The translations under genes were made by a program, and so were the position numbers. Of a stretch of 15,013 bases of DNA, positions 1 through 7,601 are shown piece after piece (position 1 is the stretch's first letter; every line of letters begins with the position of its first letter). The notes under the pieces were generated by a model. It was given only the letters and a program-made list of their open reading frames with translations. It was not told the DNA's origin and searched no databases. Source of the DNA: a bacterium (GTDB lineage: Bacteria; SZUA-182; DTGQ01); contig JBFMGO010000050.1 in assembly GCA_040752695.1 (NCBI GenBank), positions 21,964-36,976 of the forward strand, written 5' to 3'.

Positions 1-2400
1 GCTAATACTGATCCAGTGGCTTACTGCAAGCCTTACTGCCCCGTGCCTGCCGGTACAACGCCTGATCAAATCTGCAGGCCTTGTCCGTATGCTCAAAAAC
101 TGCCGACCGGCGAAATCAAATACTGCTGTCCGGTTGCGACCGCAACCACTGCCAATGTCCAGCTCTGGTGCCGGCCATGCCCTGTGGCTGAGACCGGCAA
201 AGGTGGCCCCGCTCAGTACTGCTGTCCTGTGCCTCAGGTCACGGCAGCCGGTGAAGCCCTCTGGTGCAGGCCCTGCCCATTGGCCACCGGTGTTGACGAT
301 CAGGTCCAGATGTGGTGCTGTCCCCTGCCTGACGTAACCGTGCAAGGGAATCATCTCTGGTGCAGGCCCTGTCCTCTGGCTGTTCAGGTGGATGAAAATG
401 TCCAGCGATGGTGCTGTCCGATAGCCCAGGCAGAGGCAGCAGGTCAGTCCTTATGGTGCAAACCCTGTCCTTATGCAGTGGAAAAGAATGGCCAGCTTAC
501 TCTCTACTGCTGCCCAGTGGCAAGTGATGTCGATAACGTACTCTGGTGCAGGCCCTGCCCCTATCCGAAAGCTACGGACCGGGAGTTAACTCCTTACTGC
601 TGTCCCATCGCCACCAATACAGGTCAGGATTTATGGTGCAAGCCCTGTCCTCTGGCCAATGGCGTGGATGATATTCTCAAACAGTGGTGCTGCCCATTGC
701 CAACCGTGCAGGTCGATTCGGATATTCTCTGGTGCCGTCCCTGCCCCTTTGCCCAAAATGTCGATGGTGGAATTATCCGCTACTGCTGCCCTGTCGCCCA
801 GATGCCCGACAGCGACCTGACCCTGTGGTGCAAGCCCTGCCCATTGGCCACCAACAGCCAGCCAGCTCAGGTTTGCTGCCCCATATCAACCGCAGAGGCT
901 GCCGGAGACCGTTTATGGTGCTGCCCGGTATCACACAGCAGTCCTGTAGCCTGGTGCAGGCCGTATGTCACTCTTGATAGCGGTGTCAGAAACGGCAAAA
1001 TTTACTACCCGTATTCCTTCATACCGCAAAAGGGATGTGTACAAGGTGATTCAGGGGCGCTGGATATCGAAGATGCCCAGGGTATGACCCAAGATGAGGT
1101 AAAAATCCCCGTAAGGATTCAAACCGCACCCGGCAGTGTCTATGCCATTGGCTTTGAAGTAATCTATAATCCGGATGTTCTCGAGTACCTGGGTTTTGAA
1201 AGAGGTAATCTGGTCACCTCTTTCACGATGGTTGATGTCAATCCTGACGGATCAGACAGAGTAAGAGTAGGAGGAATGACTATCGGTAACGGTATCCCGC
1301 AGGGAGCAACCGGTTATGTCGTCTGGTTGAAATTCAAAGTGACCGGTGATATAGAGAGCGGATGCACTCCTGTACTGCTGGAAAACCTGACGGACGACCT
1401 CGCGCAATTCTCTCAGACCGGTGGGTGTTTCTGCATGAAGGACAACATTCCGCCTGAAATTGCCTGCCCTAAGGATAGAATCATTGCCCAGACAAGTCTT
1501 GAGGGTACACCCGCCGACGATCCTGACGTGCTCGATTTTCTGGCAGAGGCCAGCGCCTGGGATAACCTGGATGGTGAGGTCGAGGTGACCTATAATATCC
1601 TGCTGGCATCCCAAAGCGGTGTACCGGCTTCCACATCGGCGAAACCATACAGTATTAACGAAAAAGGGATAAAGGCTTCCTTCCCGGCCATACTTCCACC
1701 CGGAACAACCAACGTTATCTTTACAGCCGTTGACAGTTCAGGCAACAGCGCTTCTTGCGTATCCACGATCACTGTTCAGCCGATAGCCTGTGAGGAGGAT
1801 GAATCAGGAGAACTGGACATTGAAGGCACTACAGGAAAAATGGGAAAAGAAGTTGTCATCCCGGTAAGAATCCAGTCCGCTCTCGGTACCGTCTCCGCCT
1901 TCGGCTTCGAAGTAACCTACAAGCCATCTGTTCTCGAATATACAGGCTATGAACGTGGGAACCTGGTAACTTCCTTCCCCATGTTTGAGGTCAACTCCAT
2001 TGGTTCCGGAAGGCTTATCGTCGGAGGATTCTCTGCTGTCCAGGGTATCTCGCAGGGAGCAAGCGGCACTGTGGTTTTACTCAAGTTTATGGTTAAAGGC
2101 GGCATGGAAGGTGGTTGTTACCCCTTGATGCTGGAAAACCTGACGGACGATCTGGCTCAATTCTTCCCGACTCCGGGCTGCATCTGCATCAATAGCTGCA
2201 ACGGAGATCTGAACGGCGATGGTAAAATTACCCCGAAAGATGCTCTGATCGCCTTCCAGTGCTATCTCGGATCAGGCCCCTGTGACGACTGTACCGATGT
2301 GAACGGGGATGGCAAGACGACTCCGTCCGATGCCCTCTGCTTGTTCAAAAAATATTTAGGGCAGCCTTCCTGCCTGGACGATCTGACAAATCTGCCGTGA
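1..2400 (+). CDS. 5'-partial large, probably extracellular protein: Cys/Pro-rich repeat region + cohesin + HYR-like Ig domain + cohesin + C-terminal dockerin
   Basis: The frame is open from base 1 (gct aat act gat cca gtg), so the true start is probably upstream of the window. There are two similar cohesin-like domains (~1054-1437 and ~1807-2193; G.LDIE...IPVRIQ...GFEV.Y.P.VLEY.G.ERGNLVTSF...LKF.V...LENLTDDLAQF). A HYR-like domain lies at ~1441-1779 (DNIPPEIACP...AWDNLDG...PGTTNVIFTAVDSSGNSASC). A dockerin at ~2203-2361 has two Ca-loop repeats (GDLNGDGKITPKDAL / DVNGDGKTTPSDAL). Stop TGA is at 2398-2400. Confidence 0.88.
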   Translation, partial: ANTDPVAYCKPYCPVPAGTTPDQICRPCPYAQKLPTGEIKYCCPVATATTANVQLWCRPCPVAETGKGGPAQYCCPVPQVTAAGEALWCRPCPLATGVDDQVQMWCCPLPDVTVQGNHLWCRPCPLAVQVDENVQRWCCPIAQAEAAGQSLWCKPCPYAVEKNGQLTLYCCPVASDVDNVLWCRPCPYPKATDRELTPYCCPIATNTGQDLWCKPCPLANGVDDILKQWCCPLPTVQVDSDILWCRPCPFAQNVDGGIIRYCCPVAQMPDSDLTLWCKPCPLATNSQPAQVCCPISTAEAAGDRLWCCPVSHSSPVAWCRPYVTLDSGVRNGKIYYPYSFIPQKGCVQGDSGALDIEDAQGMTQDEVKIPVRIQTAPGSVYAIGFEVIYNPDVLEYLGFERGNLVTSFTMVDVNPDGSDRVRVGGMTIGNGIPQGATGYVVWLKFKVTGDIESGCTPVLLENLTDDLAQFSQTGGCFCMKDNIPPEIACPKDRIIAQTSLEGTPADDPDVLDFLAEASAWDNLDGEVEVTYNILLASQSGVPASTSAKPYSINEKGIKASFPAILPPGTTNVIFTAVDSSGNSASCVSTITVQPIACEEDESGELDIEGTTGKMGKEVVIPVRIQSALGTVSAFGFEVTYKPSVLEYTGYERGNLVTSFPMFEVNSIGSGRLIVGGFSAVQGISQGASGTVVLLKFMVKGGMEGGCYPLMLENLTDDLAQFFPTPGCICINSCNGDLNGDGKITPKDALIAFQCYLGSGPCDDCTDVNGDGKTTPSDALCLFKKYLGQPSCLDDLTNLP
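22..966 (+). repeat. Coding tandem repeat, ~32 aa (~96 nt) period: WC[RK]PCP-x11/9-[YW]CCP-x11/9
   Basis: Nine full four-Cys units plus partial units at both ends, 41 Cys in this stretch by my count. The DNA core (e.g. ctctggtgcaggccctg) recurs with mostly synonymous variation. Confidence 0.95.
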
Positions 2401-5559: not shown

Positions 5560-6351
5560 CTAAAAAAGTGTTCCATAGATCATGCCGGTAATCGTGGCCA
5601 TGGTGATTACAAGTAAAACAAAAACTATCGCTTTCCTGGTTCCCATAATACTGCGAATGACCAGCATGGAGGGAAGAGACAGGGCTGGTCCGGCCAGAAG
5701 AAGGGCCAGAGCCGGACCTTTGCCCATCCCACTGCCGATGAGGCCCTGCAGGATCGGGACCTCGGTCAAGGTGGCAAAATACATAAATGCTCCTACTACT
5801 GAGGCGAAGAGATTAGCGGAAAGTGAATTTCCGCCTACAGCTTTACTGATCCAGGTCGAGGGAATGAGTCCCTCATGGCCAGGTCGGCCAAGCAAAGCAC
5901 CGGCGATGAGGACTCCAAAGAGGAGAAGATGCAAAATCTGTTTGGTAAATCCCCATGCTGAACTGAACCATTCCCCCATCTCGCCGTCATGGGTACTGGT
6001 AATGGTCGATAGTCCGATGACTCCTGCAGCAAAGGGGATCATCGGTTCGGAGGGAAAAGCAAACGCCAAAAGGATGACCGGGACTGTCGCTAATAATACC
6101 TTTGGCCACTCCAGATTGAACCAGGAAATAAGCATCATGCCAAAGATGAGAGCGCTGACGGCAGTTATGGTCCATTTGACTGAATAGATGGCCTGCCAAA
6201 GGCCGGTCGGCACGGCTGGTTTGCCCCAGTTTGCAAAGACCAGAATGGCCACCATGGCTGCAAACCAGGCTGCATTTTGCCAAAGGGGTCTGGTTACTTC
6301 AGCAATATCAGCACAGATGGCAAGCTGCTGTGAACGCTTTCCATTTTTTGC
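5560..6351 (-). pseudogene. 5'-truncated DUF318/ArsP-type permease (long type), C-terminal half only
   Basis: Motifs RPLWQNAAWFAAMVAILVFANW, GAFMYFATLTEVPILQGL and GKGPALALLLAGPALSLPSMLVI are typical of the C-terminal part of ~400+ aa DUF318 permeases. The frame is closed upstream by the TAA at 6354-6352, and there is no RBS before the internal ATG at 6255. Confidence 0.8.
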
Positions 6352-6992: not shown

Positions 6993-7601
6993 TCAGAGAA
7001 TCAGATTAAACAGATAGCCCGTGAAGATAATGCCTGTTCCAACTATACTGGCAAAGATAATCAGGAGCCTTACCTTCATTACCTTTCGCAAGATCATAAA
7101 TGCGGGCAATGATAACCCTACCACAGCCATCATAAAGGCCAGACTTGTTCCCATACTGACACCCTTTTCGGTTAAAACGCTGATGAGCGGAATAATACCG
7201 GCAGCGTTAGAATAGAGAGGTATGCCGATCAAGGTGGCAAAGGGAACAGCATACCAGTTGTTTCTCCCTGCATACCGGACGAGAAAGTCGGTCGGCACAT
7301 AGCCGTGTATCCATGCTCCAATGCCGATGCCGATGACAACATGGGGCCAGATCTGCTTTATAATATCAAAGGCATAGGTTGTCGCATAGTTTACCCTCTC
7401 AGCCCAGCCCATTTTGAGTGGATCTGCGGCTTTACCGGTCTTGCTTTGGTAAACAAAATCTTCCACCAGACTTTCCACCTTGAGCCGGCCAATAATTATT
7501 CCCGAAATAATAGAGATGACCAGCCCGCTGAAGGCATAGACCAAAGCGACTCTCCATCCGAATAATCCCAAAAGCAGAACGAGGGCCACTTCGTTAATCA
7601 C
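6993..7601 (-). pseudogene. 5'-truncated DUF318/ArsP-type permease (~300-aa type)
   Basis: Begins at the normally internal motif (SP)MINEVALVLLLGLFGW. Contains GIPLYSNAAGIIPLISVLTEKGVSMGTSLAFMMAVVGLSLP. The N-terminal ~100+ aa are absent. Confidence 0.8.

Follow-up and report, generated by a model that had tools for sequence, protein, structure and literature searches.

A new, lineage-restricted Cys-Pro repeat, probably a stalk of tied hairpins, in an exported bacterial cohesin-dockerin protein

The keratin-associated high-sulfur proteins are structural proteins in which CC-x-P and C-x-P motifs are abundant. In designed disulfide-cyclised, Trp-stabilised beta-hairpin peptides, a Cys pair closes a ring of about 10-15 residues that has a turn at its centre and aromatic residues beside the disulfide. 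To our knowledge, metallothioneins have a Cys content of about 30% and lack aromatic residues, and the Pro/Thr-rich linkers of scaffoldins have no Cys and no fixed period. The cysteines of the IgG3 hinge link two heavy chains by interchain bonds. The human hinge is described as carrying the Cys-Pro motif CPRCPEPKSCDTPPP repeated three times (PMC4891372). Granulin is presented as a stack of four hairpins with the disulfide connectivity I-III, II-V, IV-VII, VI-IX (PMC7463432). Its 12 Cys are arranged in the order C, C, CC, CC, CC, CC, C, C, so that either end has two single Cys.

The repeat considered here lies at the beginning of a stretch of bacterial DNA of 15,013 nucleotides (the window). 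The array occupies positions 25..966 of the forward strand (residues 9-322) and consists of 21 nodes separated by 20 linkers: a variant CKPYCP node comes first, followed by nine C[RK]PCP and ten CCP nodes, and the last is a half node, W-C-R-P-Y (952..966, forward strand), which has the first Cys of a node but not the second, as do 9/9 final arrays of the relatives. A preliminary description had reported about 20 Cys motifs alternating through nine units, with linkers of 11, 9 or 8 residues and D/G/N near their middle. This is borne out. The two node types alternate without exception over residues 25-294, the sole break being a CCP to CCP step at the end; the linkers measure 12 (15/20), 10 (4/20) or 9 (1/20) residues once the aromatic residue is counted, and turn-forming residues (G/N/D/P/S) are most frequent at linker positions 6-8 where the linker follows CxPCP and at 7-9 where it follows CCP. 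Nine double units of 30-32 residues each (70..915, forward strand), from which the profile A1 was built, follow the consensus WCRPCP-x-A-...-D-...-YCCP-x-A-...-L, and the columns C2, P4, C5, P6, C19, C20, P21, and L32 of their alignment are invariant. The 315 residues encoded by nucleotides 22-966 include 41 Cys (13.0%), 43 Pro (13.7%), and 4.1% Trp. In 10,000 shuffles of these residues, C.PCP occurred 0.09 times on average (maximum 2) and CCP 0.72 times (maximum 5), against nine and ten in the protein. At the DNA level, the mean identity among six 96-nt units is 0.51 and Tandem Repeats Finder reported nothing in the array region. Thus, the periodicity is held at the protein level.

The array belongs to the 3′ part of a large gene (1..2400, forward strand; 799 codons and a stop at 2398-2400), whose reading frame 1 is open from the first base. 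Base 1 of the window is directly preceded by a scaffold gap of 100 N, so that the repeat region is cut at its 5′ end. Recovery of the upstream sequence, which had been proposed earlier, brought to light a hydrophobic signal anchor and further repeat arrays before the gap (upstream ORF, G000:C50:18701-21863, outside the window). This upstream piece and the window part make up a single gene, for one exported protein of about 1,900 residues. From a comparison with protein P0004, the gap is predicted to hide about 58 residues, comprising the remainder of the small domain mentioned below and the first node. In order, the protein is composed of the signal anchor, an Msarc-type beta-propeller, two unassigned domains, the repeat arrays, a cohesin, an HYR-like segment, a second cohesin, and a dockerin; a small domain of some 75 residues breaks up the arrays. 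The same order is found in full-length relatives (1723-1952 aa). The propeller, in the N-terminal piece, belongs to beta_prop_Msarc (TIGR04275; 256.8 bits for a cut-off of 85, in seven stretches). Both cohesins belong to PF00963 (73.4 bits for a cut-off of 24.1, in two stretches); the first is at 1060..1386 (whole-protein E 2.7e-20, best stretch residues 354-462) and the second at 1810..2115 (G000:C50:23773-24078), both on the forward strand. Between them, the HYR-like segment (1693..1776, forward strand) scores slightly under the Pfam cut-off of PF02494 (21.3 bits for 21.7), and the type I dockerin (PF00404, E 1.3e-07, 32.2 bits for a cut-off of 22.9) lies at 2203..2349 on the same strand. 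The hydrophobic N-terminus, the propeller, the cohesins, and the dockerin together define an exported context. In the cohesin-dockerin half, 16 Cys columns are invariant in 7/7 orthologues.

As had been surmised, the repeat is an unrecognised one. With Pfam at E values up to 1, the window protein matched only cohesin, dockerin, HYR, and noise, with nothing credible on residues 1-322. NCBIfam gave no match on the repeat, and the upstream arrays matched nothing in either collection. Profile A3, run against the sequences of the PDB at E values up to 10, returned 0 matches, and a search of the ESM Atlas with the repeat no usable one. Literature searches yielded only metallothionein-3 work for Cys-Pro repeats and CPCP or CXPCP motifs, nothing relevant for a cysteine-rich repeat accompanied by cohesin, dockerin, or beta-propeller, and nothing usable for YTV/Rhodopirellula. 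The suggested search of protein sets with a profile of the repeat was carried out exhaustively with A1 on 1.84 billion proteins and found five clusters, that of the protein itself included. Within the class, 6/20 genomes have the repeat; all belong to one order and carry it always in this one gene. A scan of genome contigs found three bacterial MAG records and two distant archaeal propeller matches when alignment A4 was used, and no relative with the window protein as query. The repeat is new and lineage-restricted. The only other CCP-rich ORF of the genome, on contig C44, resembles an off-frame read of a DNA repeat. PF26549 is a Pfam accession listed for relatives of the protein.

Among relatives, the grammar of the motifs was examined on six ORF pieces, comprising 312 nodes and 293 node-to-node transitions. 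Transitions alternate in 261/293 cases, and runs of CxPCP only and of CCP only are also found, which makes the two node types interchangeable joints. Linkers of 12 residues account for 183/293. The odd lengths 9, 11, and 13 are common (73/293) and as frequent as 10; hence one fixed hairpin register cannot suit all loops, and the earlier idea that two-residue deletions keep the beta register is not supported. W precedes the CxPCP node in 122/159 cases and W or Y the CCP node in 93/153, and nearly every C-P is followed by a hydrophobic residue, then by Ala or Pro. Within the linkers, hydrophobic residues are found at positions 1, 5, 9, and 12 or 1, 6, 11, and 12, and covariation is strongest for 6-9, 5-10, and 7-8, pairs that lie symmetrically on either side of the turn. 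The arrays are positioned between globular parts of the protein, and their copy number varies widely, from 21 to 128 nodes per protein and from 3 to 43 per array. In one relative (G002), two blocks are 100% identical across 810 nt. This behaviour is stalk-like.

The way in which arrays begin and end is informative on cysteine pairing. Twenty-four array ends were examined, three of which are cut by the sequence end and four run into a complex junction. The 17 remaining ends all finish as a linker of 9-12 residues followed by one Cys, with the form W/V-C-x-P-notCys in the nine preceding cohesin or the C-terminal part and ...[N/E]-C in the eight preceding the small domain. At the N-terminal side, six arrays open with a single x-C-P and nine with N-C-x5 before the first node; a further six follow immediately on the small domain, whose own Cys lies 30 residues upstream. 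Linkers are free of Cys in 421/438 cases; the extra linker Cys number 0 (17 arrays), 2 (one array), or 4 (seven arrays), that is, an even number in 25/25, which amounts to about three independent cases. Because the orthologues are few and closely related, neither the counts of ends nor those of parity are independent. The half nodes and the even extra Cys fit a sequential pairing in which each linker would be closed by its two flanking Cys. Models with two bonds on one linker (CC and CxPC as a double staple) or with bonds within a node (vicinal CC or a CxPC ring) are contradicted by the one-Cys half nodes. Selection was estimated by comparing two genomes (G000 and G002): dN/dS is 0.02 for nodes, 0.27 for linkers, and 0.42 and 0.18 for the cohesins, as rough values with dS near saturation.

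Taken together, and as judged from sequence patterns, the repeat probably forms a chain of tied hairpins that serves as a stalk. The loop unit would be Cys-Pro-hydrophobic-[Ala/Pro]-x(6-9, with a central D/G/N/P turn)-hydrophobic-[Trp/Tyr]-Cys, and each short loop appears to be closed off by its cysteines. At a CCP node, loops would be joined directly head to tail (...W-C|C-P...), and at a CxPCP node via a two-residue spacer (...W-C-[R/K]-P-C-P...). Each loop would most likely be a short beta-hairpin, its base being tied, most probably by a disulfide, between the second Cys of one node (i) and the first of the next (i+1). Since each pair would then consist of Cys that neighbour each other in the sequence, the protein could do without an isomerase. 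Such a chain of tied, Trp-capped hairpins could form a stiff, protease-resistant stalk, which would keep the propeller and the unassigned domains at a distance from the cohesin-dockerin end and whose length may be tuned as units are gained or lost. The sequences themselves show the grammar of the motifs, the exported context, the narrowness of the family, the variation in copy number, the half nodes, and the selection on nodes and linkers; we infer from them the hairpin fold, the chemistry of the disulfides, and the role as a stalk. To the explanation as a whole, that of lineage-specific arrays of disulfide-tied hairpin loops serving as a stalk in one exported multidomain protein, we give about an even chance of being right.

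Structure prediction bears on the fold to some extent. For 38 residues (1.5 units) and an alignment of 54 in-register rows, AlphaFold2 gave a mean pLDDT of 69 (81 for residues 21-30) and placed, with moderate confidence, a hairpin in the CCP-to-CxPCP linker, with strands 24-27 and 30-33 about a two-residue turn and with bridge residues 3-4 to 18-19. Extrapolated from the DSSP strands, the register of this model would set Cys20 opposite Cys37, not Cys34. For four units and a staggered alignment of 47 rows, the mean pLDDT fell to 33 and the model was unusable. Comparison of the 38-residue model with 48,161 PDB chains using VIA-align gave no match with Z >=2, a result that carries no information for a model of this size. 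Each C-P-linker-[W/Y]-C segment had been proposed at the outset to be a closed hairpin. Its closure is in keeping with the array ends, the parity, and the mid-linker turns, whereas for the hairpin the AlphaFold2 signal is only moderate.

How does the repeat compare with the systems outlined above? With granulin, it would share short beta-hairpins between CC doublets, the two Cys of a doublet bonding in different directions, and a disulfide-pinned rod. However, granulin is a closed module of 12 Cys whose bonds pass over a doublet, whereas the arrays are open-ended and terminate in one single Cys instead of two, as fits nearest-neighbour pairing; moreover, the linkers of the repeat are longer (9-13 residues), Pro and Trp occur at every joint, and granulin gave no Pfam match at E 1. 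The repeat is therefore not counted as a granulin. The IgG3 hinge resembles the repeat in being a Cys-Pro motif that recurs in tandem about every 15 residues and in forming a stiff spacer between globular domains, but its motif order is C-P-x-C-P instead of C-x-P-C-P or C-C-P, its bonds are interchain whereas half nodes point to intrachain sequential pairs in the repeat, and Pfam and PDB sequence searches detected no homology. Kinship with eukaryotic high-sulfur proteins, the closest analogy originally put forward, finds no support, as the repeat matches no Pfam family at E values up to 1, the keratin high-sulfur models included; unlike the keratin-associated proteins, the repeat is bacterial and exported and has a fixed linker length and a conserved aromatic residue before each node. 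The designed hairpins are single synthetic peptides, whereas up to 128 joints are concatenated here in a natural protein. As with the linkers of scaffoldins, the arrays are found between cohesin-dockerin modules and vary in length among relatives but, unlike them, their nodes are under very strong purifying selection. Dense CC, CxxC, and C-P motifs recall metallothioneins, of which MT-3 has a CPCP motif. Yet the much lower Cys content of the repeat, its Trp, its conserved Trp/Tyr, and its loops of 9-13 residues between doublets set it apart from this family.

Several features of the genome speak against disulfides. Neither DsbB nor VKOR was found in the 96.6%-complete genome, and the sole DsbA-like match is weak (22-23.5 bits) and corresponds to an ORF with CPFA in place of CxxC, hence to no canonical DsbA. 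COX1 was not found in the genome either, so that the organism is probably an anaerobe. Nor did a bias towards even Cys numbers emerge: of the signal-peptide-like ORFs, 324 have an even and 435 an odd number of Cys (43% even, versus 47% in the rest), in a crude test that used a home-made signal-peptide rule and no positive control. All this would suit cysteines kept reduced as thiolate ligands of soft metals or metalloids, either in structural metal bridges that replace disulfides or in a high-capacity extracellular sorbent or mineral-binding tether. Pairs of the CxxC and CC type are well-known ligands of metals. The version of this protein found in the order's other family closes with 'putative metal-binding' motifs (Cu-binding_MopE; three stretches, E 1.4e-20), and the downstream neighbour of the gene carries eight such motifs there; a multihaem cytochrome operon runs divergently upstream of the gene in two of the genomes of the genus. 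We nevertheless regard thiolate ligation as rather unlikely. One-Cys half nodes and even extra Cys fit pairs, not four-Cys sites, the nearly invariant Trp/Tyr beside Cys and the Cys content are unlike metallothioneins, and the N-terminus, as read off the sequence, has no twin-arginine motif, so that no pre-assembled cofactor is expected. A link to the nearby ars-type genes had also been raised, but ArsP and ArsR are absent beside the gene in the two relatives checked, one of the same genus and one of the other family, and are not conserved neighbours. A redox-active thiol/disulfide relay or buffer working with neighbouring extracellular multihaem cytochromes has, in our opinion, a very slight chance. 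The W-C-x-P-C motif does resemble the thioredoxin active site, W-C-G-P-C. In two genomes of the genus, the upstream order of NHL, multihaem cytochrome (Paired_CXXCH, MtrC-like), NHL, and sigma-54 activator is conserved, and each of them has sigma-54-like -24/-12 sites some 520-530 nt ahead of the gene. However, counts of such sites are not above chance (7 for a shuffle mean of 6.0, and 12 for 14.35), the cytochrome synteny was not observed in the other family, CCP-only arrays have no CxxC, and half nodes speak against pairs within a node. A thioredoxin-like CxxC oxidoreductase was likewise rejected, the motif alone being shared and no thioredoxin family being detected by Pfam or NCBIfam on the repeat or elsewhere in the protein. 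One may also imagine that the arrays are no passive stalk but an extracellular thiol or thiolate polymer, with up to about 250 repeat Cys per chain, that would transport electrons or soft metals over the cell surface and, in this genus, would be co-regulated with the NHL and multihaem-cytochrome operon via the divergent sigma-54 activator. It would be a Cys-based counterpart of cytochrome 'wires' in an anaerobe that has neither DsbB nor VKOR nor a canonical DsbA, and we hold it to be highly improbable.

Disulfides might also form between chains, in parallel as in an antibody hinge or with other surface proteins, giving a covalent stalk bundle or a surface lattice. The three copies of the hinge motif and their similar period lend this idea some appeal, and the very low confidence of the four-unit monomer model would be expected of an obligate multimer, but it has many other possible causes. 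Pairing of the same residue between chains predicts neither half nodes nor even Cys parity and, together with the different motif order, this renders interchain bonding quite unlikely. A homodimer prediction for a piece of 70 residues (2.5 units) scored 0.00 in a run without controls, which speaks neither for nor against self-association. Finally, the location of the array between domains of a cohesin-dockerin protein and the pLDDT of the four-unit model could be taken to mean that it is a mere flexible, Pro-rich interdomain linker, like the Pro/Thr linkers of cellulosomal scaffoldins, whose cysteines would have no structural role. Against this stand the invariant Cys, Pro, and Trp positions, the narrow spread of linker lengths, the very low dN/dS of the nodes, and a linker dN/dS that falls within the cohesin range; we consider this reading very unlikely.

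If the model of tied hairpins holds, the arrays would represent a natural, modular, length-tunable rod made of the smallest possible cross-linked units, with about 15 residues per tied hairpin. Such a rod would have no structural precedent and is beyond what current structure predictors can model. More than 100 exported Cys in one protein of a probable anaerobe lacking DsbB, VKOR, and a canonical DsbA raise a biochemical question, namely whether they are engaged in disulfides, bind metals, or are free thiols. For protein engineers, the variable loops tolerated on a fixed Cys-Pro-Trp frame make the repeat a candidate display scaffold. The general biological reach is limited by the narrow distribution, one gene family in one order.

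Reading frame 1, already open at the first base of the window, meets its stop codon at 2398-2400. Its residues 9-322 (nt 25-966, plus strand) form a Cys-Pro array made of a variant node CKPYCP, nine C[RK]PCP nodes, ten CCP nodes and a terminal W-C-R-P-Y, the C[RK]PCP and CCP nodes alternating strictly over residues 25-294. Of the 20 linkers of this array, 15 are 12 residues long, four are 10 and one is 9, lengths that include the aromatic residue before the next Cys. When the nine double units (CxPCP, linker, CCP, linker) are aligned, C2, P4, C5, P6, C19, C20, P21 and L32 are invariant, and each C-P is followed by a hydrophobic residue and then by Ala or Pro. The node pattern is far above chance expectation: in 10,000 shuffles, C.PCP was obtained 0.09 times on average (maximum 2) against 9 in the protein, and CCP 0.72 times (maximum 5) against 10. 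Node counts, linker lengths and shuffles thus bear out the reality of the alternating repeat noticed in the preliminary description. At the DNA level the repeat units are old; six 96-nt units share a mean identity of 0.51, and Tandem Repeats Finder reported no repeat over the array region.

A 100-N scaffold gap (G000:C50:21864-21963, G000 being the source genome) directly precedes window base 1 and splits the gene. Upstream of the gap, a 1,054-codon ORF on the same strand runs open into it. In the product, P0002, the N-terminus is hydrophobic and is followed by seven beta_prop_Msarc repeats (TIGR04275, 256.8 bits), a Ser/Gly/Asn-rich stretch, two domains without family match, a short Cys-Pro junction and, ahead of the gap, a second Cys-Pro array of shorter period with 9-residue linkers. 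The window array is followed by two cohesins with a sub-threshold HYR-like segment between them, and then by a type I dockerin. In full-length relatives (1,723-1,952 residues), the identical domain order is found within one chain. From this order and from comparison with the closest relative, P0004 (65% identity over the repeat), it follows that the window array closes the series of arrays in a single exported protein about 1,900 residues long. About 58 residues, corresponding to the remainder of a small domain and to the first node of the window array, would be hidden in the gap. As a lead only, the unassigned domain before the short array (P0002 residues 645-868) has ESM Atlas look-alikes of the galactose-binding-like or CBM_4_9 type, with scores of only 0.88-0.89.

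A genome-wide look for other carriers confined the repeat to this one protein in G000. The 40 cohesin matches of the genome, spread over about 30 ORFs, constitute a large non-cellulosomal cohesin-dockerin network in a host that is diderm, as deduced from four Omp85 matches, and apparently anaerobic; no COX1 was found in this 96.6% complete genome. Elsewhere in G000, at about 39.1 kb of contig C44, an open frame of 170 residues is rich in CCP, with repeating R-T-C-C-P-I-type units; it appears to be a DNA tandem repeat read out of frame.

Neither Pfam nor NCBIfam has a model over the repeat, in the window protein or in the upstream piece. A 32-column profile of the nine units, searched against 1.84 billion representative proteins, gave 9 matches at E up to 0.001, of which 5, including the query protein, at E up to 1e-10; four weak matches (E 3.8e-6 to 9e-5) proved on inspection to be unrelated low-complexity repeats. 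Among 41 genomes of relatives, the profile matched six (6 of 20 in the class), namely G000, the two further genomes of its genus and three of the six genomes of a second family, and none of the 29 outside these two families. Each positive genome has one locus, represented in the sixth, G008, by a contig-end fragment only. The N-terminal propeller part (E up to 1e-20) was found only in five repeat-positive genomes, apart from distant propeller matches in another genome, G007. PDB sequences, the ESM Atlas and the literature yielded no match to the repeat. We conclude that the repeat is a new family, with a joint grammar not described before; as a kind, Cys-rich tandem repeats that make up stalks of exported proteins have precedents.

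The grammar was further examined on 312 nodes from six ORF pieces of five genomes, these pieces not being independent. Alternation holds for 261 of 293 node-to-node transitions, the others being CxPCP-to-CxPCP (22) or CCP-to-CCP (10), which makes CxPCP and CCP interchangeable joints. Linker lengths are 12 (183), 13 (33), 9 (31), 10 (29), 11 (9) and 14-17 (8), and the earlier argument that two-residue deletions keep beta register found no support. Trp directly precedes 122 of the 159 CxPCP nodes. The consensus is hydrophobic-A-x-x-[V/M/L]-D-[D/G/N]-G-[L/I/V]-x-x-[Y/W] for linkers following CxPCP and [V/L/I]-[A/P]-x-x-x-V-x-G-x-x-L-W for those following CCP, with turn formers peaking at positions 6-8 and 7-9, respectively. 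In post-CxPCP linkers, the strongest covarying pairs (6-9, 5-10 and 7-8) are symmetric about the turn, a weak signal confounded by relatedness. Proteins carry between 21 and 128 nodes, the highest number being that of the 3,604-residue ORF of G010 (locus L019, G010:C2; 315 Cys), a version from the second family. In G002 (locus L020, G002:C22), two repeat blocks within ORF residues 847-1441, spaced 297 residues apart, show 100% identity over the 810 nt compared; they stem either from a very recent duplication or from an artefact of assembly. A third block there has 88% nucleotide identity. Between G000 and G002, dN/dS is 0.02 for nodes, 0.27 for linkers and 0.42 and 0.18 for the two cohesins, rough values as dS is near saturation.

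The array ends are the most informative feature on pairing topology. Out of 24 ends, three are truncated by sequence and four run into a complex junction. All 17 scorable ends show one further linker and then a single Cys, either within W/V-C-x-P-notCys (nine) or within ...[N/E]-C where a small domain starts (eight). At the array starts, a lone x-C-P occurs in six cases and N-C-x5 ahead of the first node in nine, while six follow a small domain whose own Cys lies 30 residues upstream. These half nodes imply that the first Cys of a node faces backward and the Cys before Pro faces forward. Internal Cys are rare, being found in 17 of 438 linkers; added up per array, they number 0, 2 or 4 in each of the 25 arrays, which amounts to some three independent cases. 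Array ends and parity fit nearest-neighbour pairs closing each linker, the second Cys of a node being paired with the first Cys of the following one. Bonds within nodes, a double staple of CC with CxPC and a granulin-type ladder all fail to fit single-Cys ends and even extra Cys; in the connectivity given in PMC7463432, each end of granulin bears two single Cys, whereas the repeat arrays have one. Loop closure by flanking Cys, as put forward in the preliminary description, is the best-supported model on grounds of sequence logic, and we would give it roughly an even chance. Structure prediction on four units, aligned in staggered fashion, reached a mean pLDDT of 33; on one and a half units, with 54 rows aligned in register, the mean was 69 (81 for residues 21-30). 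The latter model folds the CCP-to-CxPCP linker into a hairpin with a two-residue turn and has a short bridge from the first node to the second. Extension of its predicted strands brings Cys20 to face Cys37 instead of Cys34, so that the model supports a hairpin and does not confirm the exact Cys pair.

As to disulfides or metal thiolates at the repeat Cys, neither DsbB nor VKOR was found in G000, and the sole DsbA-like match is weak (22-23.5 bits), in a 379-residue ORF on the minus strand (G000:C1:111900-112091; L023:1489-2628) having CPFA where CxxC is expected; generic thioredoxin-fold proteins are present. In a crude test, run with a home-made rule for signal peptides and without a control genome, signal-peptide-like ORFs had 324 even and 435 odd Cys counts (43% even, versus 47% for the rest), and 113 of 872 had no Cys. 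Of the patterns of Daniels et al. (PMC2823432), these counts resemble 'exclusion' rather than 'even bias'. Missing enzymes and parity counts weigh against routine enzymatic disulfide formation and keep the metal-thiolate reading alive. Two points speak the other way: strictly consecutive Cys pairs would need no isomerase, and the Cys columns of the cohesin-dockerin half that are invariant in 7 of 7 orthologues, 16 in all, are even in number as well.

Downstream of the gene in G000 are ArsP_1 fragments and an ArsR-type regulator, to which the repeat had initially been linked. These genes do not adjoin the repeat-coding gene in the relative from the same genus, nor in the second family, which leaves the link unsupported. 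Two separate minus-strand ORFs (window 5560-6255 and 6993-7601) have matches limited to C-terminal positions of the ArsP_1 profile (163-293 and 95-293 of 294) and may correspond to a split or duplicated permease. Upstream, a divergently oriented gene for a GAF-domain sigma-54 activator and an operon encoding an NHL propeller, a multihaem cytochrome (Paired_CXXCH, MtrC-like) and an NHL propeller (minus strand, L008:248-7620, that is G000:C50:10248-17620) are kept within the genus, in the same order in the relative (L025); this order was not seen in the second family. In both genomes, a sigma-54-like -24/-12 site precedes the gene start by about 520-530 nt (L008:8165-8180, L025:9416-9431), with a conserved RBS and a small hydrophobic ORF between site and gene. 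Further such sites precede the NHL-cytochrome operon (L008:5628-5643, L025:7210-7225), site counts overall not being above chance. Finally, the second-family protein ends with Cu-binding_MopE motifs and an unassigned C-terminal domain in place of cohesin and dockerin, and the gene that follows it (L027:21623-23695) carries eight Cu-binding_MopE motifs.
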